Positions 7,544 through 63,811 of a stretch of DNA of 64,000 bases are shown here, piece by piece. Source of the stretch: Bdellovibrionales bacterium (GTDB lineage Bacteria; Bdellovibrionota; Bdellovibrionia; Bdellovibrionales; JAGQZY01); contig JBGSNK010000022.1 of the NCBI GenBank assembly GCA_041739665.1, forward strand, positions 75 to 64,074. Reading direction: 5' to 3'. The first letter of the stretch is position 1. Each line of letters starts with the position of its first letter. Made by a program: the position numbers and the translations under genes. The notes under the pieces were generated by a model. That model saw only the letters and a list, made by a program, of their open reading frames with translations. It was not told the DNA's origin and searched no databases.

Positions 7544-7714
7544 AAAATGGGTCCGCATTCCTTTTGAAATTTCTTGAACCTCAATTTTAGCTCTCAGCCG
7601 GGCTCCTTGCCCTTACTGGTATTTCACCCTACGGGTGAAAACGCGTCCAGCTTGCCAGAGCTAAGAACTACAATTGAGGTTCAAGAAATTTCAAAAGGAA
7701 TGTGGACCCATTTT
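7544..7714. repeat. Palindromic intergenic element with 43-bp arms and a structured core
   Basis: 7544-7586 is the reverse complement of 7672-7714 (1 mismatch); core hairpin tttcaccc-tac-gggtgaaa at 7622-7640; lies between convergent genes. Confidence 0.95.
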
Positions 7715-7723
7715 AATTCTTGA

Positions 7724-8335
7724 TTAGCGCGATGAAGTGCTAAAGTGAAAGCTTGTTTCCACTTCTATGAAGCGACCTTTTAAGGATTCCGGAAGTGGGG
7801 AGTGTCCGCTACTCTTTCTCAGACTGTCAATAGCTGCGCGATTGAGGATCTCAGATGAGCTGGGTTGGGTGATTTGGATATTTTGAATGGTACCATCGCG
7901 GAGAACACGAAAGCGAACTTTCACAATCCCTTGTACCTTGAGTTTGCGCGCAAAGAGCGGATAGCGTTTGTTTTGTTCGAGCTGGTTGTAAAGATTCTGT
8001 ACATACTCGTTGTAGGCGCGACCGCCACCCCCATAGGACTGAAAGCCGGTTTGTCCACTGTATGTGGAATTTTGATGGGATCCTTGATCAATTTCCTTTT
8101 TTCCAGAAGTTGTAGGGTCTGGCAAAGTCGCCAGTCGACTATTTTTTGATTTTTTGTCTGTTTGCGGTGAAGTTTTTTGAAAGCCTATTATCTCAAAAGT
8201 GCCACCGCCGATGCGAGCTGGATATTGCCCCTCTTGTCCCAGTCCGCCAAAGTAGAGCACTGTGGCGACGAGGCCATGGATTCCCAAGGAAACTAAGAAG
8301 GGGTGTATAGTTATATTAAACTTCAATGAGTCCAT
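7724..8335 (-). CDS. TonB family energy transducer (C-terminal TonB domain)
   Basis: N-terminal TM with SLGIH motif; YPLFARKLKVQGIVKVRF...SSSEILNRAA TonB_C pattern. Confidence 0.85.
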   Translation of the reverse strand: MDSLKFNITIHPFLVSLGIHGLVATVLYFGGLGQEGQYPARIGGGTFEIIGFQKTSPQTDKKSKNSRLATLPDPTTSGKKEIDQGSHQNSTYSGQTGFQSYGGGGRAYNEYVQNLYNQLEQNKRYPLFARKLKVQGIVKVRFRVLRDGTIQNIQITQPSSSEILNRAAIDSLRKSSGHSPLPESLKGRFIEVETSFHFSTSSR

Positions 8336-8341
8336 TTTGCC

Positions 8342-8368
8342 TCATCGACTTTTTTTTCCATTCAATGA
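8342..8368 (-). promoter_or_regulatory. Putative sigma28-like promoter of the TonB-family gene
   Basis: TCAT-N15-GTCGATGA on the minus strand, 6 nt before the ATG. Confidence 0.45.
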
Positions 8369-8406
8369 AGTCACTTGTCTCAATTCGATACAATAGAAAC
8401 AAAAAC

Positions 8407-8862
8407 TCAAAGTTGCAGTTTTTTTCGGATAGCTTCAACGCGGTTTCGATTGGCACCCAAATCGGAATAACCCACCCGTGACTCGGACTTGATATGAATG
8501 ATGCCGTTTTCTCGATCCAACAAAAATTCCACATCATCTACAAACTTAAGTAAGGGTGTTTTTGCTGTGCAATGAATGTAGTTTTCTTGGCTCGTCACAG
8601 GAGTGAGACCTAAGTCGTGGAGGCCCATTTGTAAATTGTCCCAGACCACTTCGATATTATCGGCGTGCAAAGGCTTGATGAAAGATTTGTGACTTTGCGA
8701 GGAGAGACTAGAAACACAATTCGGTTTGTCGGAACACTCCTTTAACAAGCCCTGTTCAATTCCTGTATTTCCAGGGTTCGTACGACTTTTAATTGCCTGC
8801 CAAAACATAGAACCTCCAAAGAGTGCGACGACAAGAAACAAAATACCAAGAAAGATTTTCAT
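8407..8862 (-). CDS. DUF1499 family protein
   Basis: CSDKPNCVSS, FVDDVEF and SESRVGYSDLGANRNRVE signature. Confidence 0.9.
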   Translation of the reverse strand: MKIFLGILFLVVALFGGSMFWQAIKSRTNPGNTGIEQGLLKECSDKPNCVSSLSSQSHKSFIKPLHADNIEVVWDNLQMGLHDLGLTPVTSQENYIHCTAKTPLLKFVDDVEFLLDRENGIIHIKSESRVGYSDLGANRNRVEAIRKKLQL

Positions 8863-10016
8863 AGAGAAAGCTCAAAAATTTGTTGCGATTTTTTAAGGTC
8901 GATTTTTCGATTTTCTCCAATTTGGGTAAAACCTTTATCATTCAAACGCTCTACCATGGTGGCTATATCCTGCTGACTGACACCGTAATAGCTCATTTGA
9001 GTTTTGATACCCATGGCTTCAAAAAAACTTTGGGTTTTATCGATCGCCTCGGCAATCACTTCGGACTCGTCTTCGCCTTGAATGTTCCAGACGCGACGGG
9101 CATACTGCAAAAGTTTGTCTTTCTTATCCACACTCATCACACGCAATGTGCTTGGTAAAATGATGGCCAAGGTTGTGCCGTGGGCTAAGCCAAACTCGGC
9201 TGTGAGTTCGTGACCAATCATATGAGTGGCCCAATCTTGGGGAACACCACAACCAATAACTCCGTTTAAAGCCATCGTCGCGCACCACATAATATTGGCA
9301 CGAATGTTATAATCTTCAGGAAGAGCCAGTGCCTTTGGGCCCTCTTCAATAAGGGTGGTGAGTATGGATTCAGCAAATCGATCTTGCAAAGGAGCATGAA
9401 CCGGGTAGGTCAGATACTGTTCGGTGACATGTACAAAAGCATCGACGACACCATTGGCAATTTGTTCCCGAGGTAGTGAGTAAGTGTATGTAGGATCCAA
9501 AATGGAAAATTGGGGGTAGAGGTCCCGGTGCATAAAGCCGCGTTTTTCTTTGCTAGCTTTGCGGGTGATGACCGAGGCGCAATTCATTTCGGAACCTGTG
9601 GCAGGAAGAGTGAGAACTGTCCCAAAGGGAACCTTGTGCCCCTTGGTGTCCACGCTCTCACTGACAATTGTCCACTCATCACCTTCAAAGGGAGCGGCGA
9701 CAGAGACAAACTTGGTTCCATCAATCACCGAACCGCCACCCACAGCGAGTAGAAAATCCACTTTTTCTTTACGAACTATCTCGACGGCTTTCATCAGGGT
9801 TTCAAAAGTGGGGTTGGGCTCAATACCGGAAAACTCGACAACATCATATTCCGCTAAAGCCGAGCGGACAGCCTCGTAAACTCCATTTTTTTTGATCGAT
9901 CCACCGCCATAAAGGAGCATAACCCTATTCTGTTTGGGAATTTCGCTGTGCAAATGCTGCACTTGCCCTTCGCCAAAGTGAATGCGAGTGGGATTCCAAA
10001 GCGTAAAGTTATTCAT
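8859..10016 (-). CDS. yqhD: Iron-containing NADPH-dependent alcohol/aldehyde dehydrogenase
   Basis: NPTRIHFG, GGGS, GGGSVIDGTK, ATGSE and DWATHMIGHELTA motifs. Confidence 0.9.
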   Translation of the reverse strand: MNNFTLWNPTRIHFGEGQVQHLHSEIPKQNRVMLLYGGGSIKKNGVYEAVRSALAEYDVVEFSGIEPNPTFETLMKAVEIVRKEKVDFLLAVGGGSVIDGTKFVSVAAPFEGDEWTIVSESVDTKGHKVPFGTVLTLPATGSEMNCASVITRKASKEKRGFMHRDLYPQFSILDPTYTYSLPREQIANGVVDAFVHVTEQYLTYPVHAPLQDRFAESILTTLIEEGPKALALPEDYNIRANIMWCATMALNGVIGCGVPQDWATHMIGHELTAEFGLAHGTTLAIILPSTLRVMSVDKKDKLLQYARRVWNIQGEDESEVIAEAIDKTQSFFEAMGIKTQMSYYGVSQQDIATMVERLNDKGFTQIGENRKIDLKKSQQIFELSL

Positions 10017-10032
10017 AAAGACTCCTTAAAGC

Positions 10033-10398
10033 TTAGATGAATTTGTATTCAACAGTCAGTATGGCCAATAAAACCAAAGCCATGAGAGACAAAAGAGGCA
10101 GTTTGCTGCTGGGGTTTTGTTTGTAAAAAATAACAGGGTACATGCCAAGAATAAGCCAAATAAGAATTTTAATGTAGGGCCAACCCATTGTGAATTGAAA
10201 GCCACCTCGAGCCATCAATCCAAAACCTGCAACAAAAGAAAGCAGAAGACCGATGCCGTGGAAGGCCGAAAAAAACTTTCGGTTTTTAAAGTTTTCTTTG
10301 CTGCCGCCCTGCAGTCGGTGAGAGGCGATGGCCCCTAAACTCATGAGCATTAAAAATAGGCCAGAAAAGTGTAGAATCTTGTAAAAAGTGTAAGACAT
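10033..10398 (-). CDS. Small four-TM membrane protein (SirB2-like)
   Basis: YKILH...HGIGL...W..IK pattern; four hydrophobic segments. Confidence 0.6.
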   Translation of the reverse strand: MSYTFYKILHFSGLFLMLMSLGAIASHRLQGGSKENFKNRKFFSAFHGIGLLLSFVAGFGLMARGGFQFTMGWPYIKILIWLILGMYPVIFYKQNPSSKLPLLSLMALVLLAILTVEYKFI

Positions 10399-10607
10399 TT
10401 GCCGTCTCCCGTTGGTGTTTTCTCAATTGTTTTAGACACTAAACCCTCTCGTAGAGACTGGCAATAAGGACCGAGTTTAGTGGCTATTGCCGCCTTGCAT
10501 TTAGCCTTTGCTGGGACATCAAATAAGTGACTTCCTCGTTGACAATCGCGTCAAACCCAGCGACACAAGGGTCACTAAAAACCAATTGAATATAAGGAGT
10601 ACGAACC

Positions 10608-12668
10608 ATGTCTCAGATGATTGAGCAGATTGGAATTGTTGCACCTGTTGCTGGCGGACTGGGTTTAGTCTTTGCCATGTTCCTCTACATGAGAAACATG
10701 AAGCTATCTACAGGTGATGAGAAAATGACGGCCATTGGAGAAGAGATTCATCTCGGTGCCATGACCTTTATGAAAGCCGAGTACAGACTGTTGGCGATCT
10801 TTGTTGTTGCTGTCACAGCAATTCTTTACCCGGTTAAAGGTTGGGAAACTGCCGTAGCCTTTTTGTTTGGTGCTGTCACTTCTGGGACAGCTGGTTTCAT
10901 TGGTATGAAGGCGGCCACACGCTCAAATGTTCGCACCGCCACAGCGGCTAAAGAAGGTGGTATTGGTCCGGCTCTTCTCGTTGCTTTCCGCGGCGGAGCT
11001 GTGATGGGCTTGTCTGTTGCCTCTCTAGGACTTGTTGGTTTGGGTGTCTTCTACTTTATTTGGGGCCAGTATGTGGACACGGTTGGTGTGATCTCTGGTT
11101 TCTCTATGGGAGCTTCTTCAATTGCTCTTTTTGCTCGCGTGGGTGGAGGTATTTTCACCAAAGCTGCCGATGTGGGCTCCGATCTAGTTGGTAAAATCGA
11201 AGCCGGTATTCCCGAAGATGATCCTCGTAATCCAGGTGTGATTGCCGATAACGTTGGCGACAACGTGGGTGACGTCGCCGGTATGGGTGCCGACATTTTC
11301 GAATCCTATGTGGGAGCCATGGTGGCCACAATTGCAATTGCGGCCACTATGGGTAGCGATGCTATGGCCCTTCTTCATCCCGGTGGAGAACCTGCCAGAG
11401 CTTTGATTATGGCGCTTCCTTTAACTCTTTCGGTTTTGGGCTTAGCCTCTTCTTTTGTTGGAATCATTGGCATGAACATTTTCAAATCGTTGCCTCCAGC
11501 AAAAGCTTTGCACGTCTCTGAGTACACCGCAGCTATTGGTTTTCTGGGTTTAACAGCTTTGAGTATTGTCACTTTGGGCTTTGAGTTCTCTGTGTTTTAT
11601 CCCATTCTTGCTGGTACAATTGCTGGTCTTGCTATTGGTTATGTCACTGAGTATTACACGGCAAAAGGTCCAATCCTTCGCATTGTCGAAGCTTCTAAAA
11701 CAGGTCCTGCAACGAACATCATTACTGGTTTTGCTGTGGGCCTTGAGTCTTGTGTGTTCCCCTTGATGATACTTGCCGCCACTATTTATGTTTCAAACAA
11801 TGTGGCGGGTCTCTATGGTATCGCCTTGGCTGCGGTTGGAATGCTTGCCACTGTGGGTGTAACTATGACCATTGATGCCTATGGACCTGTTGCGGACAAC
11901 GCCGGTGGTGTTTCAGAAATGGCTGGTCTTGGTCCGGATGTCCGCAAAATCACCGATGAGTTGGATGCGATTGGAAACACGACAGCTGCCATGGGTAAAG
12001 GTTTTGCCATTGGCTCAGCTGCCTTAACAGCTTTGGCTCTTTTCGTCGCTTATGGCTCATCCGTGAATGCCCTTCGTATAGCCGCTGGTATGAACCCTCT
12101 CACTATGGACATTACCGATCCCGTTGTTGTGATTGGTTTATTCTTAGGTGCTATCGTTCCTCTGTGGGCAGGTGCTATGACCATGACCTCCGTTGGAAAA
12201 GCAGCCGGCGCTATGGTCACTGAAATCCGTCGTCAGTTCCGCGAAATTCCTGGTCTGCTCGAGGGAACGGGTAAGCCCGATACAGCACGTTGTGTGGAAA
12301 TTTCCACCAATGCGGCTTTGCGAGAGATGGTCTTGCCTGGCCTTCTTGCTGTGGTGGCACCGGTTGTTGTGGGCTTAGCTCTCGGACCGGCCGCTTTGGG
12401 AGGAATGTTAGCCGGTGCGACAGTCACGGGTGTTGTTTTGGCTCTTTTGATGTCAAATGCAGGTGGAGCTTGGGATAATGCTAAAAAAGCTATTGAAACA
12501 GGATCTATCCCTGGCGAGAAAAAAGGATCAGACGCTCATAAAGCCACCGTTGTCGGTGATACTGTGGGCGACCCGTTCAAAGATACGACGGGTCCTGCGA
12601 TGAACATCCTTATCAAGTTGATGTCCATTGTGGCCCTTCTCTTGGCATCTGTTATCGCTTTAAATTAA
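10608..12668 (+). CDS. hppA: Membrane-bound K+-dependent (probably Na+-translocating) pyrophosphatase
   Basis: [40 protein letters not shown] (Ala signature of K+ dependence) and [11 protein letters not shown]. Confidence 0.95.
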
Positions 12669-12685
12669 TTCGTTGTTATTTTAAG

Positions 12686-12705
12686 AGGGGTGTTTTAACA
12701 CCCCT
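12686..12705 (+). terminator. Hairpin after hppA
   Basis: aggggtgtt-tt-aacacccct stem followed by a short T run; abuts the next ATG at 12709. Confidence 0.55.
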
Positions 12706-12708
12706 TTA

Positions 12709-13725
12709 ATGGCTGTTGTAAGTTCCCTACAAATTCCCCACGAACTCGATGCTCCTGCGGCACTTAATTGGTTTCAAAAATCGATTTTTCAAGACATTCC
12801 GCCCTATTTTATGACCCACTGGAAGACGGGTAAACGTTTTTTCTATGCTGGAGATGCCCTTATTGCCTTTGAAGAAACTAAAAAGTACTTTGTTGTGGCT
12901 GGTGAGCCATTAGTGGCCGCTGGTTCAGAGGATGTTGAGATCCTGCGCGCCTTTGAAGAGTTTGCGCGTCGACAAAACAAACAGATTTGTGGTTACTATG
13001 TGAGCCAGCAGTGGCGTTGGCCAAGCTTTGTGAAAAAACCACTTGGAACCAGTATCCGCATTGACTTAGCAGACTTTGATTTAAGTTCTCCAGAGGCTTC
13101 CGAGGTGAGACGGGCCCTGCGCAAGGGCCAAAAGTTAGATTACAATGTCATTCCCATCTACCAAAGACAGCGCAAACACGACACAAAAGTCAGTGTTTTA
13201 TTTAAGAGTTGGCGCAAATCAAAAGCCCCTTTTTACCTCAAGTTTTTCTTATCTAAACCAAAAGCCTCTAGCCCTGTGTCCTCCTACGAAGAGTGGTTTA
13301 TCGTCGAAAAAGAGGGCAAGGCCTTAGCCTTCTGTAGTTTGTTGCCCTATTTGCGCGATGGAGAGTTGGGGTTTTATATGGACCACTTGGTTCATAGTCC
13401 CGGTCAAGATAGCCAAGCTCTGAGTTTCTTAATTTCTTTTTTAATCGAAATATTAAAAGAAGAGGGTGTGCGAGAGCTCAATCTTGGTCTCAACCCTTTT
13501 GCCAAAATCGAGAAAAAGGGATGGTTCGAACGACTTTTTTCTTGGTTCTATAAGTTTCCATTTTTGTATCGCCCGCAAGGTCTTCATTTTTTTAAAAAGA
13601 AGTTTAGCGGCATTGAAGAGAACGAGTATTGTTTTTTTCAAGCGAATAAAAGCAAATGGTCGGGGCTAGCCCATATGGCGCGGGTGACCCTTATCAATGG
13701 TATACCTTCCAAAGGAAAGTTCTAA
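12709..13725 (+). CDS. Stand-alone phosphatidylglycerol lysyltransferase C-terminal (DUF2156, MprF-like) domain protein
   Basis: VVAGEPL, LGTSIRIDL, LNLGLNPF and YRPQGLHFFKKKF motifs; no flippase TM domain. Confidence 0.75.
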   Translation: MAVVSSLQIPHELDAPAALNWFQKSIFQDIPPYFMTHWKTGKRFFYAGDALIAFEETKKYFVVAGEPLVAAGSEDVEILRAFEEFARRQNKQICGYYVSQQWRWPSFVKKPLGTSIRIDLADFDLSSPEASEVRRALRKGQKLDYNVIPIYQRQRKHDTKVSVLFKSWRKSKAPFYLKFFLSKPKASSPVSSYEEWFIVEKEGKALAFCSLLPYLRDGELGFYMDHLVHSPGQDSQALSFLISFLIEILKEEGVRELNLGLNPFAKIEKKGWFERLFSWFYKFPFLYRPQGLHFFKKKFSGIEENEYCFFQANKSKWSGLAHMARVTLINGIPSKGKF

Positions 13726-13913
13726 TGATTTATCTTGTCGTCATAGGATTTGTTATCTTTCTGACCCTCGGTTATTTTTTCTTGATGTTCGTTTTTCCCG
13801 AGTGGGTTGGGATTTCTGGCGAAGATACTAAAAAAGCCATCGATTCCCATCGAGGCGATGCTTCCAGCGAGACCAATCCTTCACCGCAATCATCTGAACC
13901 GGAGGACTTCTAA
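13725..13913 (+). CDS. Small membrane protein
   Basis: TAATG coupling with the upstream stop; N-terminal TM helix followed by FPEWVGISG. Confidence 0.6.
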   Translation: MIYLVVIGFVIFLTLGYFFLMFVFPEWVGISGEDTKKAIDSHRGDASSETNPSPQSSEPEDF

Positions 13914-13971
13914 CCTTTCACATTTCAATTTCTTGAAAGACAGCAGTTAACCAGCGCCTTTTTGCTTCTCA

Positions 13972-16900
13972 CTATTGTGGTTCTAAGCAAATGCGCATCA
14001 AGCCCCAGTCTCCGTCGGATGGCGACGTCAAATTGAAACCTAGGATAACACGATTCAGTTGATCTTTGACCATTGAGACTGAGGTCGCATTCACACCTCC
14101 CGGCCATGGATGATAAATGTAACCCGAGCTACCAAAGCTAGTGTCTAAAGTTCCGTTGCTATTGATTTTTGCAATACCCAACTGCTGTTGGGAGCTAATC
14201 GTGGTGGTAAAGAAAAAATAGAGACTACCATTCACAATTTCTTGGCCCGCAATATCTCCACTTGCAGAGCCAGAAGGAGTCAGCGACATGATGCCGGTTG
14301 TGTTCCACGAGGTGTCGAGTACGCCTGAGCTGTTCGCCTTAATTAAATAGATTGTATTACTGCCAACGGCCTTCCCACTCACATAAATATTCCCAGCTGA
14401 ATCCTGCACTAATTTTCTGGCCAGAGCAGGCTCGCCAACATAAACAAGCAATTCACCATTTGTTCCAAAACTTGTGACAACGGATCCATCACTTGTGTTG
14501 TATTTTTTGATCGAAAAATGCCACCCCGCAGGGTTACGCTCTGAAGTTATATACATTTGTGAATTATCCGCTGTGAAATCGGTCTGGTATCCAAACTCGT
14601 CACCGGCGAGTGACGACATGAGGTAACCACTCACTCCAAATCCTGACACAATCGATCCTGATGAGGAATCAAAGCGGGTCGCCGCCATATCTGCTGCGTT
14701 TGGAACGGTCATGGTAAGTACGTGACCCGTTTGTAACAGTATTCCATTTGAACTGACATAAAGCCCATCGCCACTGGTAACATTTGGATTACTTGCGACA
14801 CCACTTGTACCAAAACCAGTTATTAGGTTTCCATTTAAGTCCATTTTAGCAATTCGCCTACCACCGCTACCGTTAACACCGACATAGATTTCGTCATTGT
14901 AAATTTGTATACCTTTTCCATTGCTGCCAACTCCAAAATCATGGACTCTAAAACCGCTAGTGCCAAAACTGGTGTCGATGTTTCCCTGCTGATCAAGTCT
15001 CGCAATGACGAGATCGTTATAGGTGCCGTTACTCGCCCAACCGGACAGATAGATCCTACCCATAGAGTCACGGGCAAAAATCGACGAGGTGTATTGGTTG
15101 AGGTTGCTGACCGAGCCATAGTCAATCTGGGCAAAGCCATTGGTGGCAAAGCTGTCGTCCACAGCACCATTGATACCGTGGCAAAGTTCCACCTTTGTTT
15201 CTTTTAAGTTATCACCAAGCTGCGCAGTCGAGAGACGAGAGACATTGTCCCCAAGGCCCAATTGACCCATTTGGTTGTCCCCCCAACACTTAAAGCGACC
15301 GTCTGTTGACAAAGCGCAAGCATGACTATTGCCAAGAGACACCTTGGTTGGAATAAAGCCAGTTCCTAGGTCTATGGGGCTTTGGGCCGCGATCTCTCCA
15401 GTGCTGTCTCCAATATGCTCAAATACATCTCCATATCCAAGAAAACCATTAGTATTATATCCCCAGCACTTTAGGGCGTCATCACTCATGATGGCGCAAA
15501 ACTTACCGCCGTCTGCGACCGAATCCTGGCCATAAATTTTTTTGACAAGTCCGGTGCCTCCAAAATCAATATCCGGAATATTTTGCATTTCACCGGGGTC
15601 GTTGCCAATTTCATCATTGGCAGGATAGCCAAGTGCACCGGCCCAATCGTCGCCCCAACACTTAACTTTCCCATTGGAAAAAAGTGCGCAATTGGTTTTG
15701 TGGTTGCTCGCGATGTCGATGACATCCATATCGATTCCAAAATCGATGACCGGGGTATTTGCAATTTCAGCATCGCTGATGGTCAGCGTGTTGCCTTGTC
15801 CATTTTGACCGTCTGCAGAGACACCAAAGCATTTAACCCGAAGGTTACTGAGAAGGGCACAGCGCCCCGATATTTTAAGGGCATGCAAACCCACTCCCCA
15901 ATTGATGGGATTGTTGACATTATGGGCGGGGTTCCCCCAACACCTAGTTTCGTTGTCCTCAAGAATGACACAGCCATCCGGACCTGGCCAGCCATCATGG
16001 TAGGAGACCTGGCGTATGCCTTTGCCAATACCAAACTGAAGGGGATCAAGATTGTCGCCAAGTTCACTGGGTGTACTGCCGAGACCACGACCCATAATTT
16101 CCGAACTGCTAGCACCACCAAAGGCACCATTTTGATCGAGACCATAACAGCGCAATTCCCCAGTGGTTGTCACAGAACAGGTTTGACGGTAGTAGTTTGT
16201 GACACTTTTGACAAGCACGCCCGTTCCCCAGTTGATAAAGTCCATGGATTCTAATTCGTCGGGTTCGTCCCCTTTGTTAAAAATTGCGGTGAAACCATCA
16301 CTCCCAAGGTGTCCAACAAAATCTCCGAGGCAGCTCACTTGGTTATTGTCTAATACAAAACAATTTGTCTCTTGCTCGCTAAAGTTTTTAGCGCCTAAAG
16401 ACAAAAGTTTTCGACCAGAACCTAAATTAAAATAAGGAAGGTTGTCTCCCATTTCCAAGGGATCATCACCAACATATGTTCCAAAAGAAAGGGGGCCCGC
16501 TTCACCAGATGCATTTTTCCCCCAACATTTCATCAGGTCATCAGCGGTTCTCACACAAGTGGAGCCTGCATTGATTTTGATATCCTTCACAACAATGGGG
16601 GCGGAAGCAGAGGTGCCAATGTCGACAAAGGGAATGTTGTCACCAATCGTAGTCGGTGATTGTCCGTAGGGAGTCCCACCTTCGGACCCAAGGAGACCGC
16701 CCAAGGACCCCCAACATTTAACCCTGTCATTCCCAAGAATAGCACAAGAGTGATCGCGACCGGCCACCACTTTTTTAACGGTCCAAGGTTGTCCAAAGCC
16801 GTCGTTACCCAGATCGACAAAGGGAAGGTTGTCACCCATAGTGCCATCTTGGTGTCCACGTGTGTTAGTGTCACCATATCCAAGGCGGGTGCCGCGCCCC

Positions 16901-19125
16901 CAACACTTAATCCTATCATTATCTAAAATAGCGCATTGATGCTCTAAACCAACTGATATGGATTTGACGGTGCGACCAGTGCCTAAGTTAAGGTTAGTTA
17001 AGTTATTTCCCATATCAGAAATCGTATCGCCAATCTTATCATTGTTCTGATAACCCATGCCGTATGTACTAGGGGGAGAGCCCCAGCATTTGACTTGATC
17101 TAAATTGGTGATCACACAACACCTTCTTTCACCGCAAGAGATGTCTTTAGCCGTTAATCCCGTCCCAAAATCCACGTAGGGGAGGTTATCACCCATGTTA
17201 CTCGGGCTGGTCCCCAAAGAGCCTACGCCAGGTTGTCCCAACTGGTAATGATTGTTTCCCCCCCAACATTTGACTCCGGCATTATCCAAAAGGGCACAAA
17301 AGTTACGTTGGCCGCCAGTTAGTTTTTGCGCTGTTCTTGAGCTTCCCAAATTAATAATGTTTAAGTTGTTGCCCATTTCCCCGAGATTATCCCCTAAATT
17401 GCCAAGGTCCTGTCCATTACCATTGGACTCATTATTTCCCCAGCATTTAACCTGACCACTGGCAGTCAGAGCACAAACTGCAGAACCACTGCCCTCCACG
17501 TCTACGGCATTAAAGCTACCAAGATCTATGAGGGGAAGATTATCACCGGTTTCATCATCTGTATCACCAAACAGGTTTCCATCGGTGTGCCCAAGAGCGC
17601 CAAAGACACTTTCTCCCCAGCACTTGGACTTGGATCCATCGTAAAGAGCACAAGTGGCATTGTATCCAGCTTGAATGTCTTGAACAAAATTTTCGCTGGC
17701 GTCGTTATCAAGAATTTCAACACGTAGACTAGCGGGAACACCCTGGTTGTCATGTATTTTTGTGGCTACGACAAGATAGTCTTCGGTCAATTCTGAAACA
17801 GAGTCATCGAGGGTCACAACAGCTGCCGTTTGAGTGGTATTGTTGGCCGCAATCGTCAAGGTCCCAGAAGCGTCAGTGTAATCTGAAGGGGCCACAGCCG
17901 TCCCATTGATTGTGCGATAATCAAAGCTTAAGTCCACAGGACATGCTGACCCTAAGGTGAAAGTGAAGTTTTGGGTGTTCCCCTCAAAAACAGCCGAAGA
18001 ATCCACACTGACCGTAACCGTTGGCACATCGTTTTCAACAATCTCAATTGAGGCACTCTCATCACCGGGTGTTGCGACTGTGGCGTTTGCAATTGCAGAA
18101 AGAGTGGTCGTCAAATTCTCTCGCAACTCGCATTGAACGGCATCATCAATGGTTGTAATAGGGATCAGAGTGGAAAGATTGTTTGGCAAAATTGTACCAC
18201 TCCCTCCGGTCACAGATGTAAAGTCGCCAGGCGCTACGGCTGTGTCGTCAACAGTGTCGTAATTAAAGGCTATACTCCATTCGCTTAGAGCACTTAAAGT
18301 GACAACGAGATTTGCGATTTCGCCCTCGGTTACGCTCGTTCCAGACAGATAAATATTGGGCGGATCATCGTTGTCTAAAATATTTTGAGTGGCCGTTGAC
18401 GAGCCAAGCGTTGCATTTGTTGCATTTGAGATCACGATATCAAAATTTTGCGCAGGCTCATCAATAGCATCGTCAAGAGTGTTGACACTGATATCAAGGC
18501 TTGTGACACCTGGAGCAAGACTTGCCGGAGCACCGACAAGGGCCACATAATCGCTGGCGGAAAGAGCTGTTCCGTTAGCAGTGCTCACATCAAAACTAAC
18601 TGTTTTGTTATTACAGGCTGCAGACAGACTGACCGTTGCAACGGCATTGATCCCCTCAACAACGTCGGCTCCGCTACTAATCGACAATACGGGCAAATCA
18701 TCGTCTTGAATGGTCCCGATGCCAAAAGTATTTTTAATCACTCCATAGGTGGGGTTAGAAAGTTCTAAGTTAAATGCGACATCATTTTGACAAACAGTTA
18801 AAACGTCTAAGGATGAGACAGTAATAGTTCCACTTGTATCACCTGGAGCAATCACCAGAGTGCCTGATGTCGCGCTGTAATGGGTCCCAGCCAGCGCTGT
18901 GCTGTTTGAAGCCATATAATCCACGCTGAGTGGTGCCGATGCTTTGCGATTAAGACTCACCGTAAAAACTAAATCATTTCCCTCGACCTCAGAAACATCA
19001 TCAATCGAAATCTCAATGGCCGCCCGGCCCCAAATGGCAAACGGAACAAACTGGCCCAAAGCCCGAACAGCAAGGAGGCTACATAGAGTTATAGCCAGTG
19101 AAAATGGGATTAATTTTAGGCTCAT
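13972..19125 (-). CDS. Large secreted protein: Calx-beta repeats, RCC1-like repeats and C-terminal delta-60-like beta-propeller
   Basis: Signal peptide; about 4 Calx-beta units (V.EG...DY...SGTL.I); about 14 C.....VKCWG repeats with GD..GEMGDNLP; repeated LDTSFG..G units. Confidence 0.85.
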   Translation of the reverse strand: MSLKLIPFSLAITLCSLLAVRALGQFVPFAIWGRAAIEISIDDVSEVEGNDLVFTVSLNRKASAPLSVDYMASNSTALAGTHYSATSGTLVIAPGDTSGTITVSSLDVLTVCQNDVAFNLELSNPTYGVIKNTFGIGTIQDDDLPVLSISSGADVVEGINAVATVSLSAACNNKTVSFDVSTANGTALSASDYVALVGAPASLAPGVTSLDISVNTLDDAIDEPAQNFDIVISNATNATLGSSTATQNILDNDDPPNIYLSGTSVTEGEIANLVVTLSALSEWSIAFNYDTVDDTAVAPGDFTSVTGGSGTILPNNLSTLIPITTIDDAVQCELRENLTTTLSAIANATVATPGDESASIEIVENDVPTVTVSVDSSAVFEGNTQNFTFTLGSACPVDLSFDYRTINGTAVAPSDYTDASGTLTIAANNTTQTAAVVTLDDSVSELTEDYLVVATKIHDNQGVPASLRVEILDNDASENFVQDIQAGYNATCALYDGSKSKCWGESVFGALGHTDGNLFGDTDDETGDNLPLIDLGSFNAVDVEGSGSAVCALTASGQVKCWGNNESNGNGQDLGNLGDNLGEMGNNLNIINLGSSRTAQKLTGGQRNFCALLDNAGVKCWGGNNHYQLGQPGVGSLGTSPSNMGDNLPYVDFGTGLTAKDISCGERRCCVITNLDQVKCWGSPPSTYGMGYQNNDKIGDTISDMGNNLTNLNLGTGRTVKSISVGLEHQCAILDNDRIKCWGRGTRLGYGDTNTRGHQDGTMGDNLPFVDLGNDGFGQPWTVKKVVAGRDHSCAILGNDRVKCWGSLGGLLGSEGGTPYGQSPTTIGDNIPFVDIGTSASAPIVVKDIKINAGSTCVRTADDLMKCWGKNASGEAGPLSFGTYVGDDPLEMGDNLPYFNLGSGRKLLSLGAKNFSEQETNCFVLDNNQVSCLGDFVGHLGSDGFTAIFNKGDEPDELESMDFINWGTGVLVKSVTNYYRQTCSVTTTGELRCYGLDQNGAFGGASSSEIMGRGLGSTPSELGDNLDPLQFGIGKGIRQVSYHDGWPGPDGCVILEDNETRCWGNPAHNVNNPINWGVGLHALKISGRCALLSNLRVKCFGVSADGQNGQGNTLTISDAEIANTPVIDFGIDMDVIDIASNHKTNCALFSNGKVKCWGDDWAGALGYPANDEIGNDPGEMQNIPDIDFGGTGLVKKIYGQDSVADGGKFCAIMSDDALKCWGYNTNGFLGYGDVFEHIGDSTGEIAAQSPIDLGTGFIPTKVSLGNSHACALSTDGRFKCWGDNQMGQLGLGDNVSRLSTAQLGDNLKETKVELCHGINGAVDDSFATNGFAQIDYGSVSNLNQYTSSIFARDSMGRIYLSGWASNGTYNDLVIARLDQQGNIDTSFGTSGFRVHDFGVGSNGKGIQIYNDEIYVGVNGSGGRRIAKMDLNGNLITGFGTSGVASNPNVTSGDGLYVSSNGILLQTGHVLTMTVPNAADMAATRFDSSSGSIVSGFGVSGYLMSSLAGDEFGYQTDFTADNSQMYITSERNPAGWHFSIKKYNTSDGSVVTSFGTNGELLVYVGEPALARKLVQDSAGNIYVSGKAVGSNTIYLIKANSSGVLDTSWNTTGIMSLTPSGSASGDIAGQEIVNGSLYFFFTTTISSQQQLGIAKINSNGTLDTSFGSSGYIYHPWPGGVNATSVSMVKDQLNRVILGFNLTSPSDGDWGLMRICLEPQ

Positions 19126-19131
19126 TTAATG

Positions 19132-19158
19132 ATATCGGATTAAACCACTGTATGTTTA
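19132..19158 (-). promoter_or_regulatory. Putative sigma28 (FliA)-like promoter
   Basis: TAAA-N15-TCCGATAT on the minus strand, 6 nt before the ATG at 19125. Confidence 0.65.
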
Positions 19159-19234: not shown

Positions 19235-19503
19235 TTCTTCTTTTTGTTGCCATGTGGATAACTAGCTAAAACTATTGTGCATGAATTTACATGAAGCCGT
19301 TCCCGAATCCAAATATCTGTAGAAAGAGGCACGAAGAGGACCAGCTGCAGATTTATGTCTTTTGTGGTAAATCCTTGAAAAGTTAAAAAAACATAGGGAG
19401 GCTTCCATACAAGCCCCGTAGCCTGACTCGTTTTTGCCCGCAGGGCAAAATGCTGGCAAGGTCAGGATGTCCGCCCAGACTAATAAAAACTTATCCACAG
19501 ATT
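19235..19503. repeat. Inverted, internally deleted copy of the 35991-36486 repeat
   Basis: Three consecutive blocks match the reverse complement of 36388-36486, 36171-36276 and 35991-36065; DnaA-box sequences at 19253-19261 and 19491-19499. Confidence 0.95.
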
Positions 19504-19566
19504 GGCACCCGAAAAGAGAAGAACCTACCTAACGTTGAATGGTTGGGTAAAGCAAGGCGGGTCTAG

Positions 19567-25197: not shown

Positions 25198-25224
25198 TTT
25201 ATAGAGTTAAATCGAAGCTTCGAG

Positions 25225-26070: not shown

Positions 26071-26132
26071 GCTGAAACTTGAGGTTTCATTGTAGAGACG
26101 TAACAGAGCATTATATAAGGACAGCCCTTTCT

Positions 26133-29608: not shown

Positions 29609-29782
29609 GTCGCAAATCAGGGCCATCTGGCCTTAAGCGGCTAGAAGTCCTATACTAAGTGCGAGAGATTTGGTTTCTAGGTGTCTAGTTTTTTATATGG
29701 GGCCAGATATCCAAAAAGTGAGTCAAAAAAAAAGCCGATACCAGTTATAATCAAAAAGACTTACGTTAAAAAAGGATCGTCT

Positions 29783-31852: not shown

Positions 31853-31883
31853 TTTCTGATAGCTCTGTATTTTGATTCTAACT

Positions 31884-31909
31884 AAGGCCTGTCGAAGACG
31901 GGCCTTTTT
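31884..31909 (+). terminator. Rho-independent terminator after prc
   Basis: aaggcctgtc-gaa-gacgggcctt followed by a T run. Confidence 0.8.
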
Positions 31910-32058
31910 CTTCTATTGTTAGGGTTTTCAGGCTCCTGGGCCTCTAACGCCTGGCGAAAAACCTGAATTCAGTGGGCAAAACCTTGATAAATCACCTTGA
32001 TGTGAGAAAACTTTGTAGCCCAACATTTTCATTCTTAGGGTGTTTTCAAGGGGATAAG

Positions 32059-33243
32059 ATGCAGCTTACGACCGAAACAAAGAGGGGCCCCAAAGCTATG
32101 GCCGCAGCAAAAAAATCCAAAGCCAAATCCAAGACAAAAGCAAAGTCCAAGCTCAAGCCTAAAAATAAAACCACTGAGATGAAATCTAAAGTGAAAGCGC
32201 AAAGTGCGTCCTCAAAATCAAAGCCCCAATCTGGACCAACTATTTTCTCTAAACTCAAACTCGATAAAAAACTATTACTGAAAATATACGATCTTATGGT
32301 TCAGTCTCGTGTTCTAGAAGAGCGCATGATTCAGGTCTACCGCAAAGGAGGCGCTTACTTTTGGATTGGTGCCCCCGGAGAAGAAGCTTTTGGCGTCCCA
32401 TTGGGGTTACTGGGGCAAAAGGGCCAAGGACCTCAGTTCGACTACTGGCATTTGCATTACCGTGGAACTCCCACACTCTTGGCTCTCGGAATGGACCCCG
32501 CTGACGCCCTTCGCTTGATTATGAATAAAGCCACTGATCCGTGCACGGGTGGCCGCAATTTCTCGAACCATTACTGTTACCCTCAGTGGAATGTGGTGCC
32601 TGTGACCTCTCCTATCGAGGTTCAATACTCCACGGCTATTGGCACAGGGATCTCTCAGCGTCGTCACAAGTCCAAAGGGATTAGCATCGTAACCGGCGGC
32701 GATGCGGGCAGTGCCGAGGGGGATTTTGCCAGTTGTTTAATCTGGTCCACGCGCCCAGGTTTTGAACTTCCTCTGTACATAACCGTTCAAAACAACCGCT
32801 GGGGTATTTCCACAGACTACGCCAGCCAGCACGCTGAAAAGAGTGTGGCCGATCGCGGTCAGGCTTTTAACATGCGCACGCGCAATTACAATGGCAACGA
32901 TCCGTTTGAAACCTACTTGGGCATTCAAGAGGACATGCAGTACATACGTAAAACGGGTCGCCCTGTTTTGGCCGAGTTCCGTGTTTCTCGTCTCTACGGT
33001 CATTCCTCTGCCTCGGGTGCAAACCGCATCGAAGGCGAAGAGTGTTGTCTCGAAACCTTTGAAAAGAAACTCATGGATCAAAAAGTCATAACAGCCGCGA
33101 CTATTAAAAAAATCAGAGCGGATCACTTTGAAGACATCAAAAATCTAGCAGAGAAGGTATTCAGCGAAGCCGATCCAACTGCAGATACGCTTTGGAATCA
33201 CACTTATGTGAATAGTGAGAATGCCGATTGGAGGTTATTCTAA
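32059..33243 (+). CDS. 2-oxoacid (branched-chain/pyruvate) dehydrogenase E1 alpha subunit (alternative start 32098)
   Basis: ThDP motif GDAGSAEGDF...NNRWGIST; RLYGHSS; Lys-rich N-terminus. Confidence 0.9.
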   Translation: MQLTTETKRGPKAMAAAKKSKAKSKTKAKSKLKPKNKTTEMKSKVKAQSASSKSKPQSGPTIFSKLKLDKKLLLKIYDLMVQSRVLEERMIQVYRKGGAYFWIGAPGEEAFGVPLGLLGQKGQGPQFDYWHLHYRGTPTLLALGMDPADALRLIMNKATDPCTGGRNFSNHYCYPQWNVVPVTSPIEVQYSTAIGTGISQRRHKSKGISIVTGGDAGSAEGDFASCLIWSTRPGFELPLYITVQNNRWGISTDYASQHAEKSVADRGQAFNMRTRNYNGNDPFETYLGIQEDMQYIRKTGRPVLAEFRVSRLYGHSSASGANRIEGEECCLETFEKKLMDQKVITAATIKKIRADHFEDIKNLAEKVFSEADPTADTLWNHTYVNSENADWRLF

Positions 33244-34301
33244 TGGCAAATATGGCTCAATCTATTCGAATGGCTTTGCATTTTGCAGAAAAAAACCTGG
33301 ACCTTGTCGATGTTTTTGGACAGGACGTGGGCGCGCCAATGGGGGGCGTTTTTACAGCCACCCAAGGTGTGGGGTGCGCTTGGAATGCACCTCTTGACGA
33401 GCGTGGAATTGTTGGGGCGGCCATGGGTCTGGCTTTGGCCGGCGATCGTTGTGTGGCTGAGATTCAGTTTTGTGATTACATCTTCAATACCATCGACCTT
33501 CTCAAAATGGCGGGCAATACCTTGTGGGTAACCAACGGCAATTATCCAATGCCGATGACCATTATGACCCCAGTTGGAGCTGGGATACGCGGCTCTATTT
33601 ATCACTCCCATAGTTTTGATGCTTGGGCGACACGACTTCCGGGTTGGAAAGTGGTGATGCCATCTACACCTCTTGATGCCTACGGCCTTTTGCTCGCGGC
33701 GATCAAAGACCCTAATCCCGTCTTGTTCTTAAAACCAAAAGCCCTTTTGCGAGTGCGTGGAGAAGAACTGATTCCAGGCGAACCCGAGAGCGAAAAAGAA
33801 TTGAAAGCCATGATCGATGCTCCTCTTGGAGATCGTAGTAAATGGAAGCCCAATTGGCCGCAAGTTGAAGATTACACCATCGAAATTGGAAAAGCGAAAA
33901 TCACTCGTACTGGTGACGACATAACTTTAGTGACCTATGGTCGCCATGTTTTGATGGCGAATCAAGTGGCCGACCAATTGAAAAAAGACTCGGGCATTAC
34001 AGTTGAGGTGATTGATCTGCGCTCTCTCTATCCTTACGATTGGGCTTGTATTAAAAAATCCGTCGAGAAAACAAAGCGCGTCGTCTTTTTAAACGAGGAC
34101 ACAGAAGTGACAAACTTCGCCGAGCACCTTTGTTATCGTGTGACCCAAGAATTATTTTATCAATTATTGGCACGCCCTAAAGTCTTGGCAGGTAAAAACC
34201 TGCCTGGAATTGGCTTACACGCTGTTTTAGAAGAAAATACTGTTCCACAACCATCTGACATCCAGGGGGCTCTACTTGAAGTTCTTAATGAAATCCCGTG
34301 A
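33243..34301 (+). CDS. 2-oxoacid dehydrogenase E1 beta subunit
   Basis: GQDVG..GGVF.AT, PLDERGIVG, AEIQF.DY, HSHS and EVIDLRSL motifs; TAATG coupling. Confidence 0.9.
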   Translation: MANMAQSIRMALHFAEKNLDLVDVFGQDVGAPMGGVFTATQGVGCAWNAPLDERGIVGAAMGLALAGDRCVAEIQFCDYIFNTIDLLKMAGNTLWVTNGNYPMPMTIMTPVGAGIRGSIYHSHSFDAWATRLPGWKVVMPSTPLDAYGLLLAAIKDPNPVLFLKPKALLRVRGEELIPGEPESEKELKAMIDAPLGDRSKWKPNWPQVEDYTIEIGKAKITRTGDDITLVTYGRHVLMANQVADQLKKDSGITVEVIDLRSLYPYDWACIKKSVEKTKRVVFLNEDTEVTNFAEHLCYRVTQELFYQLLARPKVLAGKNLPGIGLHAVLEENTVPQPSDIQGALLEVLNEIP

Positions 34302-35175
34302 AGCTGATTCACAGGAAAAATCAAAAAAAACGGCTAAAGAAAAATCTAAAGACAAGTCTAAGTCTAAGGATAAAAACAAGAAAGATAAACACAAAGAGTT
34401 CGATAAGTACTGGTACTATAACAAGTCCGTGCAGTCGGCCGATGTGGATGTCATCTTCTTCAGAAAAACTTTTAACGAATTGCGCGGGCGTGACCCCGAA
34501 GTTTTTCGGGAAGACTTTTGTGGAACCTTTAAACTCAGTTGCGAGTGGGTGAAACTCAAAGACAGCTTTAAGTCTATTGGTGTGGATTTAGATCTTGAAC
34601 CCATTGAATATGGCAAATCTCACTACCTACCTAAGCTCACCGAGGGGCAACAAAAACGAGTTGATATCGTACAAGGTAATGTCCTGGACACCAACCTTCC
34701 AAAGGCCGACATCATTGCGGCTTGTAACTTTAGCTATTTTATTTTCAAGCAGCGAGCAATGCTGAAGCAATACTTTTCTAATTGCAAAGACGCTCTCAAT
34801 AGTGAAGGTCTGTTTATCCTCGATATCTTTGGTGGTTCTGAGTGTTATGAACCCAACGAAGAGGAGACTGAACACAATGATTTCAGTTACTTTTGGGACC
34901 AGGACTCTTACGATCCCGTGACCAATGAGGCCACTTTCTATATTCACTTCAAAGCCAAAGGCCAAAAGAAGGTTAAAAAAGCTTTCACCTATGATTGGCG
35001 CTTGTACTCCATCCCTGAAATCAAAGACATTCTCGAAGACGTGGGTTTTCAAAATGTTCATGTTTATTGGGAAGGAACTGATGAGGATGGGGAAGGCGAT
35101 GGTGAATTTCAGCGCGTCACCCAAGGTGAAGACTGCGAGAGCTGGGTCGCCTACATCGTTGCCGAAAAACCCTGA
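34288..35175 (+). CDS. Class I SAM-dependent methyltransferase
   Basis: REDFCGT, GVDLD, NFSY, GLFILD and FTYDWRL motifs; overlaps the E1 beta 3' end. Confidence 0.8.
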   Translation: MKSREADSQEKSKKTAKEKSKDKSKSKDKNKKDKHKEFDKYWYYNKSVQSADVDVIFFRKTFNELRGRDPEVFREDFCGTFKLSCEWVKLKDSFKSIGVDLDLEPIEYGKSHYLPKLTEGQQKRVDIVQGNVLDTNLPKADIIAACNFSYFIFKQRAMLKQYFSNCKDALNSEGLFILDIFGGSECYEPNEEETEHNDFSYFWDQDSYDPVTNEATFYIHFKAKGQKKVKKAFTYDWRLYSIPEIKDILEDVGFQNVHVYWEGTDEDGEGDGEFQRVTQGEDCESWVAYIVAEKP

Positions 35176-35315
35176 GTTAGAATTGGCGCGCCTCAAAGCA
35201 AGCCTCACTTTTTAGTAGATAAACCTGTGTAAAAAATACAAGTTTTAAACCTACTAAGCCATTCCTTGTTCAAAATCTAACCATAAGATAATTTAGGGTT
35301 GTTTGTTGGGGGGCG

Positions 35316-35942
35316 ATGATGGGTTTATCTAATTTTTTTATTCTGTTTTTAATTTTTCTAAATCTTGCGTTTTCTACGCCACTTCAGGCAAAAAGTTTTT
35401 TTGATAGTCAGCTGACAGCGGATTGTGAAGAGTGGGGTTCCTTTTATTTCTGTGGCGACATGAAGCACGCTGAGGCTTTACAAAGCTGGTTGGATGAAAT
35501 TCAAAAAACAAGGGTGGGTCAAAAAGTCTTTAAAAAAATTAGTGAATCTCAGCATAGATTGCTCATCCGCCATAGTACACACAGTGTTTTCACGGCAGGT
35601 AAAACCCTAGCCCCTCTCACATTCAATTTAACCAATGGAATTGGAGAAGATGTTGTTATTCAGATGAATTTTAATATGCCAGAGCGTGGATCTCACCTTG
35701 TACGCGGACTGGTTTCTAAAGATTATATTCCTTTTACAGCCGTTCAAAATCTTTTTCATGAGTTTGTTCATGCCAAACATAAAATGCTGGGAACTCTAGA
35801 GATCAGTCGAATTGAGGAGCAAGCAATTACCGAGGAGAATATATTTCGAGTCGAGACATCCGAAGAGGCCTCGACATATCTCCGAGATGTTAGGGCTCAC
35901 GAAGACGGGGTACAAATTTGGTTTCCTGCACAGCAAGATTAA
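35316..35942 (+). CDS. Secreted HExxH zincin-like protein (M91-like)
   Basis: Signal peptide; LFHEFVHA followed by EEQAITEENIFR. Confidence 0.6.
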   Translation: MMGLSNFFILFLIFLNLAFSTPLQAKSFFDSQLTADCEEWGSFYFCGDMKHAEALQSWLDEIQKTRVGQKVFKKISESQHRLLIRHSTHSVFTAGKTLAPLTFNLTNGIGEDVVIQMNFNMPERGSHLVRGLVSKDYIPFTAVQNLFHEFVHAKHKMLGTLEISRIEEQAITEENIFRVETSEEASTYLRDVRAHEDGVQIWFPAQQD

Positions 35943-35973
35943 TATAGTTAGTTACCCACATGGCAAAAAATTG

Positions 35974-36128
35974 GGCTCTTTTCATTTAAAAATCTGTGGA
36001 TAAGTTTTTATTAGCCTGGGCGGACATCCTGACCTCGCCAGCATTTTGCCCTGCGGGCAAAAACGCTTCCTGCTTGCTGGACCCAGTCTAGTAAAAACTT
36101 ATCCACAGATTTTTAAATGAAAAGAGCC
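35974..36128. repeat. Palindromic element A with perfect 37-bp arms
   Basis: 35974-36010 is the reverse complement of 36092-36128; core ttttgccc-tgc-gggcaaaa; TTATCCACA in both arms. Confidence 0.95.
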
Positions 36129-36295
36129 TCCATTTTGCTGTGTGGTTTGATTTCATTTCTTTGAGCTAAAAAAAACGACTCAGGCTTTGAGGCTTGTATG
36201 GAAGCCTCCCTATGTTTTTTTAACTTTTCAAGGATTTACTCCAAATGACATAAAGTCTGCAGCTGGTCCTCTTCGTTTCGCTTTCCACTGAATGA

Positions 36296-36422
36296 GTTCC
36301 CGAATCCAAATATCTGTAGAAAGAGGCCTCCAGTAAACGTGATGTGATTTGCCCGTAGGGCAAATACTGGCAGAGCCCATGGAGGGGCGTGCTTCTTTCT
36401 ACAGATATTTGGATTCGGGAAC
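36296..36422. repeat. Palindromic element B with 32-bp arms
   Basis: 36296-36327 is the reverse complement of 36391-36422 (1 mismatch); core tttgccc-gta-gggcaaa in opposite orientation to A. Confidence 0.95.
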
Positions 36423-63798: not shown

Positions 63799-63811
63799 TT
63801 TTTCTTTCAGC

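Follow-up and report, generated by a model that had tools for sequence, protein, structure and literature searches.

Three long palindromes lie between genes in the 64,000-nt window, the whole stretch of DNA analysed here, which belongs to genome G000. They raise the question of what kind of element this is and what could have spread it. The preliminary description saw in each a pair of long inverted arms around a shared fold, and all three cores sit where it placed them, with the stems and loops it gave (Table 1). Its arm lengths of 43, 37 and 32 bp hold for the third copy, while the first two have longer arms (55 and 47 bp); complementarity is 51/55, 45/47 and 31/32 in copies 1, 2 and 3. What had been described as a 12-nt one-sided bulge contains a 2-bp mini-hairpin, and its loop motif is that of the 5' hairpin, which in copy 2 contains one A.A mismatch. 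The nitroreductase gene at 6776-7537 has its stop codon 6 nt before the left arm of copy 1, and on the other side the right arm comes to within 9 nt of the stop of a TonB gene (7724-8335) that runs convergently on the minus strand. The left arm of copy 2 includes a 9-mer (35995-36003) that we take to be DnaA-box-like.

Table 1. Copies of the repeat and their parts, in window positions
Feature	Position	Strand	Details
Copy 1 left arm	7544..7598	+	55 bp
Copy 1 core	7599..7659	+	61 nt
Copy 1 hairpin 1	7600-7612	+	TCC loop
Copy 1 stem P2	7616-7621/7653-7658	+	
Copy 1 hairpin P3	7622-7640	+	loop 7630-7632, reads GNA on minus strand
Copy 1 mini-hairpin	7643-7651	+	
Copy 1 equivalents of nested-insertion sites	after 7609; after 7650		
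Copy 1 right arm	7660..7714	+	
Copy 2 left arm	35974..36020	+	47 bp; belongs to largest arm family
Copy 2 core	36021..36081	+	61 nt; model match 82.8 bits
Copy 2 right arm	36082..36128	+	
Linker between copies 2 and 3	36129..36295	.	co-duplicated with elements elsewhere
Copy 3 right arm	36296..36327	-	32 bp
Copy 3 core	36328..36390	-	63 nt; 60.9 bits; orientation opposite to copy 2
Copy 3 left arm	36391..36422	-	
Fourth, decayed copy	19235..19518	-	degenerate duplicate of 35945-36486 composite

The linker co-duplicates at C107, at C43 and at 19.3 kb in the window, and a flank of about 60 nt outward of the copy 3 left arm (to 36486) is common to other copies. What remains of the decayed copy is the left arm and, from a copy-2-type core, the two-thirds at the 5' end, with a model match of 41.5 bits at 19405-19481; the copy-3-type core is gone and two deletions end in short repeated words. 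Contigs from three DNA sequencing runs, compared over 35300-37000, contained other copies and no joint. The Pfam scan of the window covered 18 of the 82 listed ORFs.

The element is about 120-175 bases long, with no gene inside, and consists of variable arms of 30-55 bp around a conserved, branched apex of about 60 bases, built of four helices and carrying two TCC/GGA loops that match each other. That it is a multi-copy, non-autonomous structured element is supported by a profile scan of the genome and a covariance-model scan of the order. G000 has about 50 copies (48 profile hits and two with long spacers), 40 of the 50 with arms of at least 24 bp, and among the Bdellovibrio-like predatory bacteria of the order Bdellovibrionales 50 genomes out of 151 contain the repeat, with from 1 to at least 31 copies per positive genome by models (R1 and R2) that miss subfamilies. 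Such inverted repeats are not a product of chance, because 24 were found in 1.56 Mb of contigs against none in either of two block shuffles, and because this core sits in 34 of the genome's 36 long inverted repeats that have spacers of 30-110 nt. An Rfam scan of the window returned two tRNAs only, and a scan of ten loci gave five weak matches far under the gathering thresholds. Phage and plasmid collections held no match, and two patterns of the repeat had none in viral contigs. Literature searches found no description of it; the supplements of PMC6006769, which cover structures of class 3 and of the atypical class 2.6, and those of PMC3733652 could contain related repeats. We regard it as an undescribed variant of the REP/REPIN-like miniature elements, with a mechanism that we infer.

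The covariation claimed from three copies extends to the family: both partners vary in 24 of 28 pairs, the count being 203 cells against 22-62 in slid controls, and stems P2 and P3 are 98.7% and 97.6% paired. Folded alone as single strands, the window cores had only a modest advantage over shuffles (z -2.1 to -3.2). Inspection of alignments A1 and A2 showed that the foot of the hairpin has no conserved GT(A/G)G tetranucleotide, and a degenerate loop-1 pattern allowing two mismatches performed no better than its reversed control.

The arms had been called unrelated. This is true among the window copies, whose inner 30 bp have 7-10 of 30 bases in common without gaps, but across G000 the arms group into families. 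At least 12 loci have one arm family in common, with shared mismatches and outer flanks, and so the arms travel with the core. This argues against a scheme in which the core alone moves and adjoining host DNA is copied backwards on insertion to give the second arm. Arms also change in place at orthologous sites, and among 40 copies just one has an arm that overlaps coding sequence by more than 3 nt. The scheme would suit the tandem arrays, in which the unit is left arm plus core (period 97-121) and only the last unit has a right arm. It would also suit site L110, where 16 of 17 bases at the outer end of the right side are a mirror of the host terminator's 3' half, although this mirroring is ambiguous because the 'empty' genome G093 carries a similar short word there. 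We consider core-only movement very improbable. The flank shared by the largest arm family has a fixed left limit and a variable right limit, and together with the tandem arrays this resembles one-ended copying.

In 14 orthologous pairs, arm differences were mirrored in 86 cases, one-sided in 16 and unpaired double in 5, with the mirrored counts inflated by indels in three pairs and the pairs not independent. Mirrored changes fit template switching, which is reported to homogenise arms (PMC5941160) and to invert spacers (PMC8604942). The core is inverted relative to its flanks at C101:4344 and between G067 and G075. At orthologous sites the core is 95% identical and the arms 80%, against 59% at fourfold-degenerate sites; in one pair the arms match at 28 of 28 positions and the fourfold sites at 134 of 292. 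Conservation of the arms above fourfold-degenerate sites means that selection acts on them too. The repeat is also a natural record, at many loci, of arm homogenisation. The arms were also considered as guides or captured spacers and rejected as such: of 35 compared with the rest of G000, 32 had longest matches of 12-17 nt, like shuffles, two had matches of 23 and 28 nt and one had none.

Which strand folds, and whether as DNA or RNA, can be judged from mismatches and loops. Read on the GGA strand, 114 arms hold G.T 88 times against 46 for A.C, and G.A 87 times against 32 for C.T, in counts that take related copies as independent. The P3 loop (n=131) is GNA in 96 cases and NNA in 127, with a C-G closure in 123. 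Read on the other strand, it is a TNC loop followed by G, which could be taken as an RNA UNCG loop. P2 is Watson-Crick in 771 of 810 cells, with just 9+9 wobble-type cells. The GGA strand is likely to be the folded one, judging by these sequence patterns. The C-GNA-G triloops (96/131) favour DNA as the likely folded molecule, d(GNA) triloops closed by C:G being very stable in DNA (PMC3201870). Of the two possibilities first raised, structured ssDNA and ncRNA, the evidence leans to the former. Copies show no replication-strand bias (23/41), which differs from IS200/IS605; 33 of 46 are oriented one way, mostly explained by a preference for gene ends.

The same loops suggest the main rival, that the GGA strand acts as a structured RNA with two CsrA/RsmA sites on a branched scaffold and serves, under selection on the RNA, as a regulatory element or a CsrA sponge in dispersed form. 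Among 135 copies loop 1 is A(N)GGA in 123 and C-ANGGAN-G in 40, and such a hexaloop on a stem matches the form of the high-affinity site, ANGGAX (PMC4005645). G.U and G.A excess on the GGA strand would suit RNA too, csrA is present in G000 and in 143 of 151 genomes, and conservation in both arms and cores exceeds that of neutral sites. However, loop 2 is GGA in only 65 of 135 copies and TGA in 64, the core stems are nearly free of wobble pairs, the P3 triloops are of DNA type, and element-positive genomes G015 (8 copies) and G079 lack a csrA match. In tandem gene contexts the TCC strand is sense in 16 cases and the GGA strand in 7 (p 0.09). The RNA reading leaves dispersal and site-exact DNA insertions unexplained, and we think it unlikely.

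Those insertions involve a separate 40-42-nt hairpin, which follows the same loop G in all 13 complete in-element cases, nine in loop 1 and four in loop 2, from four genomes. It inserts in one orientation and without duplication, and in 12 of the 13 cases the insert-free junction is present elsewhere over 18-40 nt. Four copies of the hairpin are located outside the element. It may be moved by an enzyme without any connection to the repeat.

Site-exact insertion points to a strand-transfer enzyme. It gives indirect support to the trans-acting enzyme first proposed, while the REP/RAYT link finds no support in G000, whose only Y1 protein is tied to another repeat, in 50 Y1/Y2 loci, none of which has a copy alongside, or in the layout, which is the reverse of a REPIN. 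On balance, it seems probable that this is a gene-less repeat of gene ends that folds as GGA-strand ssDNA and is copied by a strand-transfer enzyme, probably of the HUH (Y1) kind. The GGA strand would form a long stem capped by the branched tip, and the enzyme would copy it to new sites. The two matching loops of the tip are candidate nicking or recognition sites, suggested by the nested insert at a fixed G, and the insert marks a candidate cut site to the base. One arm may be recopied onto the other by template switching, which would let the arms drift, whereas a binding protein would hold the tip constant. The family separates a recognised part, the tip, from a freely drifting part, the arms. 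The long stasis of some copies suggests that the host keeps them, probably as transcript-end hairpins.

Copies are intergenic and patchily distributed among genomes, and filled and empty sites adjoin gene ends and terminators. The distance from an arm to the nearest stop codon is often under 30 nt, and gaps between convergent genes are filled by elements. Neighbours include housekeeping genes, with no cassette arrays on inspection, and among 435 neighbouring ORFs no recurrent gene appeared besides an HNH gene. Empty orthologous sites, all at species-level distance and none at strain level, carry a plain terminator-like hairpin. Another rival needs no dedicated enzyme: accidents of replication and ectopic repair from copy to copy would have spread the repeat, which would be kept as a terminator or mRNA-end protector. 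The position of arms near stop codons, the filled convergent gaps and the terminators at empty sites suit this explanation, as do the short repeated words at which the decayed copy in the window suffered its deletions and the fact that no enzyme tracks the family. Yet a terminator has no need of a conserved four-helix tip with two matching loops, one site holds four different cores in four genomes, and fixed left flank limits and exact nested insertions suggest site-specific chemistry. Spread by accident alone seems to us quite unlikely. In predatory bacteria the repeat may influence where transcripts end and how genes turn over. Its polymorphic sites occur in genomes whose chromosomes are complete, so that mobility, RNA function and the correction of arms can be tested directly.

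No cognate enzyme was found among the candidates tested. Copies flanking a RAYT/TnpA(Y1) gene were looked for, as first suggested. The single Y1 protein of G000 is TIRYT-like and tied to its own repeat: its gene (L001) is flanked by a different 25-bp repeat, and TIRYT was rejected as partner because its terminal inverted repeat differs from ours. The repeat adjoined Y1/Y2 genes at 0 of 50 loci and further Bdellovibrio-type Y1 genes at 0 of 25. Element-positive genomes G000, G002, G003, G008, G009, G011, G138 and G142 have no strong match to the Bdellovibrio-type Y1, and PF01797 matches nothing in G138, a genome that is 99% complete and has 20 copies. In G074 one of eight Bdellovibrio-type Y1 loci has an element, and in G107 a sister family with the same two loops flanks such genes at four of six loci examined. 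Y1 genes are present in 45 of the 50 genomes that have the element and in 72 of the 101 that lack it (Fisher p 0.012, with kin not independent).

IS91/ISCR Y2 is found in 10 of 26 genomes and absent from G002, G003, G009 and G011, and the Y2 of G000 has its own 127-bp end family. For relaxases, the MOB_P oriT/nic site motif is the reference pattern; PF03432 was above cut-off in none of five element-rich genomes. A retron origin was dismissed, with reverse transcriptase PF00078 in one of these five and none in G000, as was a DDE insertion-sequence MITE, since there are no conserved terminal inverted repeats and outer arms differ between families. It is extremely unlikely that the multi-copy gene for a 266-aa HNH endonuclease is the autonomous partner. 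In G074, 13 of its 16 loci have an element within about 1 kb, and at some the stop codon abuts an arm, but none of the eight closest homologous loci in G008 and G136 has one, the G000 homologues have no adjoining element, and G002, G003 and G009 have no match at 1e-8. Cargo, or a hot spot common to both, is the better reading of this gene. Joint travel with elements is limited to a single genome for Y1 genes (G107) and to another for HNH genes (G074). How REP-like repeats spread is still poorly understood (PMC8266576). A bolder reading, possible though doubtful, is that the Bdellovibrionota have an undescribed ssDNA strand-transfer system, with an inside-out miniature element bearing two nick-site loops, arms that rewrite each other, co-amplified neighbours (Y1 genes in G107, HNH genes in G074) and loops parasitised by the 40-nt hairpin.

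Among known systems, integron attC sites are folded single strands with a variable paired stem that lie just after a gene, with outer ends conserved and apex variable. Our repeat resembles them in folded strand, stem and position, but is conserved at the apex, and on inspection outer core boxes and cassette arrays are absent. CsrB/RsmZ-type RNAs also present A(N)GGA loops on short stems (PMC4005645), whereas the repeat has two loops only, the second often TGA, is dispersed in dozens of copies within long inverted arms and has no Rfam match. With REPIN/REP/BIME-RAYT elements it has in common a length of about 100-170 nt, a palindromic form, an extragenic position, a patchy distribution and long persistence at orthologous sites, and like them it is likely handled as folded ssDNA. 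REPINs (10.1101/2021.07.10.451892, PMC6006769, PMC8266576) have conserved ends and a variable spacer, the reverse of our layout; the repeat also lacks a GTAG foot, and in G000 it flanks no Y1 gene. PMC3733652 describes CGTC-type REPs, repeat families lacking a known transposase, and some REP dimers at the centre of longer palindromes, both of which recall our repeat; CGTC-type REPs are simple hairpins of 20-40 nt, whereas here there is one asymmetric four-helix core with drifting arms. G000 also has a TIRYT system (subclass 2.1 in PMC6006769; see also PMC3733652). Its TIRs form a separate sequence family, conserved at the stem base and without a branched core, but TIR dimers likewise have variable paired arms, and they sit at the same post-terminator site in two genomes.

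The three palindromes of the window belong to an inside-out hairpin repeat of the Bdellovibrionales, in which a conserved branched tip (the core) sits on variable inverted arms. The three cores with arms match the preliminary description; its arm lengths of 43, 37 and 32 bp do not, as we measured 55, 47 and 32 bp (51, 45 and 31 complementary), so only the last agrees. Copies 2 and 3 form a composite, a decayed fourth copy of which also lies in the window. Scanning the 2.64-Mb genome (G000) for further copies gave 48 loci in a profile search and two long-spacer copies, 50 in all, with arms of at least 24 bp in 40. Of the genome's 39 long inverted repeats, 36 have a spacer of 30-110 nt, and 34 of these contain the core; 1.56 Mb of contigs held 24 such inverted repeats against 0 and 0 after block shuffling. 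All copies are intergenic, often with a stop codon within 30 nt. A DnaA-box-like 9-mer occurs 87 times in G000; the sequence surrounding elements, 0.6% of the genome, accounts for 27 of these.

Coordinates of the repeat, its neighbours and related loci (plain numbers are window positions)
Feature	Location	Strand	Remark
Copy 1	7544-7714
Copies 2 and 3	35974-36128; 36296-36422		composite 35945-36486
Decayed composite	19235-19518
1717-aa protein	13972-19125	-	directly downstream of decayed copy; RCC1-like, Calx-beta, DUF5122 repeats
Peptidase_M91-family ORF	35316-35942	+	flanks composite
358-aa ORF	36596-37672	+	flanks composite; no Pfam match
DnaA-box-like 9-mer	35995-36003; 36099-36107
tRNA gene pair	63723-63884		adjacent
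TIRYT-like Y1 gene	L001:1350-2199 (G000:C15)		perfect 25-bp inverted repeats either side
IS91/ISCR-type Y2 transposase	L155 (G000:C32)		adjoins tyrosine-recombinase-like gene; 127-bp end on several other contigs
Nested insert outside element	L138, L139, L141, L144
G107 sister family	L188, L321, L322, L324, L364
G074 266-aa HNH gene	L202, L252-L267
Other arms-plus-core families	L275, L278; L211:2752-2913; L343:2184-2292		L275, L278 upstream of second gene

On the TCC strand (TCC and GGA being complementary readings of the two small loops) the order is arm, hairpin 1, stem P2, hairpin P3, mini-hairpin, P2', arm. The supposed one-sided bulge contains a 2-bp mini-hairpin. The proposed covarying core was borne out: in a set of 39 sequences, two-sided changes affect 24 of 28 pairs, in 203 cells against 22-62 in slid controls, counts inflated by related copies. 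In this set the paired fraction is 98.7% for P2 and 97.6% for P3, which varies in length and is sometimes absent. Both small loops carry the identical motif in the identical direction. Arms reach at least 22 bp at 114 of 136 unique cores, with length modes near 32 and 50 bp and mismatches concentrated 3-12 bp from the core.

Across 14 orthologous pairs, 804 of 846 core positions and 319 of 400 left-arm positions are identical, as are 1671 of 2830 fourfold-degenerate sites of neighbouring genes (12 pairs). Differing arm positions were mirrored (86), one-sided (16) or double but unpaired (5); three indel-bearing pairs inflate the mirrored count, and some of the 14 pairs have genomes in common. 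Arm change is episodic: one pair has arms identical at 28/28 positions while fourfold sites match at 134/292, and another at 19/28 with a fourfold match of 217/255. This stasis shows that selection acts as well. Block-wise mirrored change and core inversion fit template switching (compare PMC5941160 and PMC8604942). No distant source of arms was found within G000, and arm families common to several copies show that arms travel together with the core. The data favour arms that drift where they stand over arms copied from host DNA.

Orthologous sites in one genus (g35) show the turnover. Site 1 holds the element in five genomes and a plain terminator-like hairpin in three; site 2 is filled in four, with four different cores and arms, and empty in two; site 3 has the element in four, a TIR dimer in two and nothing in one. 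Across genomes, site 4 has an intact element, one that is both inverted and truncated, one shifted to the far side of an inserted gene, a single remaining arm, or no element. In tandem arrays the recurring unit is left arm and core, with a period of 97-121, the right arm appearing in the last unit only. In the largest family of G000 the left limit is fixed, about 24 nt beyond the arm, and the right limit varies.

We infer from arm mismatches, loop sequences and pairing that the element folds as single-stranded DNA. When the GGA strand is read, G.T outnumbers A.C among arm mismatches (88 vs 46) and G.A outnumbers C.T (87 vs 32). P3 has a GNA loop in 96/131 and NNA in 127/131, with C-G closure in 123/131; 771/810 P2 cells are Watson-Crick. 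PMC3201870 describes C:G-closed d(GNA) loops as very stable in DNA. Counting against single-stranded DNA, there is no replication-strand bias (23/41), and the P3 loop letters, read as RNA on the other strand, would also allow UNCG. Loop 1 also fits a CsrA site in RNA, having in 123/135 the A(N)GGA form given for such sites in PMC4005645, but loop 2 departs from it, being TGA in 64/135. The presence of csrA cannot discriminate because it is found in 143 of 151 genomes; two element-positive genomes gave no match.

A separate 40-42-nt hairpin is nested in some copies, always in a single orientation and directly after the loop G in all 13 complete in-element cases, nine in loop 1 and four in loop 2, in G000, G002, G008 and G011. 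This count omits three further copies, which are decayed, truncated and chimeric, respectively. In 12 of the 13 complete cases the insert-free junction exists elsewhere over 18-40 nt, so nothing was duplicated on insertion. Y1 strand transfer yields exact insertion without duplication. Four copies lie outside the element, that at L141 in the loop of a different small hairpin. The enzyme moving this insert need not be the element's mover.

The REP/RAYT-type link proposed initially drew no support from 50 Y1/Y2 loci, none of which adjoins the element. G000 encodes a single Y1 protein, TIRYT-like and bracketed by a different 25-bp repeat (for Y1 and TIRYT context see PMC6006769 and PMC3733652). 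That repeat has dozens of G000 sites of its own, many of them immediately 3' of a tRNA-like end, and also occurs as dimers; at other TIRYT genes inner TIR parts vary yet stay complementary across ~750 bp. The single IS91-type Y2 has its own end family; G012, with 85 matches to Y2, lacks the element. G000 gave no match above cut-off to the relaxase family PF03432 and none to the reverse transcriptase family PF00078. Taking all kinds of Y1 gene together, 45/50 element-positive vs 72/101 element-negative genomes have one. In 4/6 G107 loci a multi-copy Bdellovibrio-type Y1 is flanked by a sister family that shares both loops, lacks P3 and is present in 1/5 genomes searched. This Y1 has an element beside it in 1/8 G074 loci and 0/25 further loci, and eight element-positive genomes, near-complete G002 among them, have no strong match to it. 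In G074 an HNH gene clusters with elements at 13/16 loci vs 0/8 close homologous loci elsewhere. Similarity among the more than 20 copies of this 266-aa gene breaks off with the stop codon and declines gradually on the upstream side, a pattern like that of a one-ended mobile unit.

Like a REPIN, the element is long-lived, extragenic and miniature, and likely handled as single-stranded DNA; it departs from REPINs in layout and foot motif and probably in its partner gene. It is probably an inside-out non-autonomous palindrome: recognition would be of the tip, and each arm would be recopied with the other as template. That the mover is an HUH enzyme is a guess, which we favour slightly less than its negation.

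Relatives also carry the repeat. Covariance model R1 matches 50/151 genomes of the order, with 1 to at least 31 copies per positive genome, and R2, in a phylum draw, 16/151, five outside the order (two inspected, one with 32-bp arms); both undercount the family, additional subfamilies having been met in g35 and G107. An exact pattern, run over a single genome from each species, hit 45 loci, every record titled Bdellovibrionales or kin. No Rfam family matched, nor did phages, plasmids or viral contigs, and no published description was found in the Bdellovibrio repeat literature, most subscription papers lying outside coverage. Further families, in which arms of 23-51 bp enclose unrelated cores of 60-67 nt, suggest that the arms-plus-core layout is general in this order.
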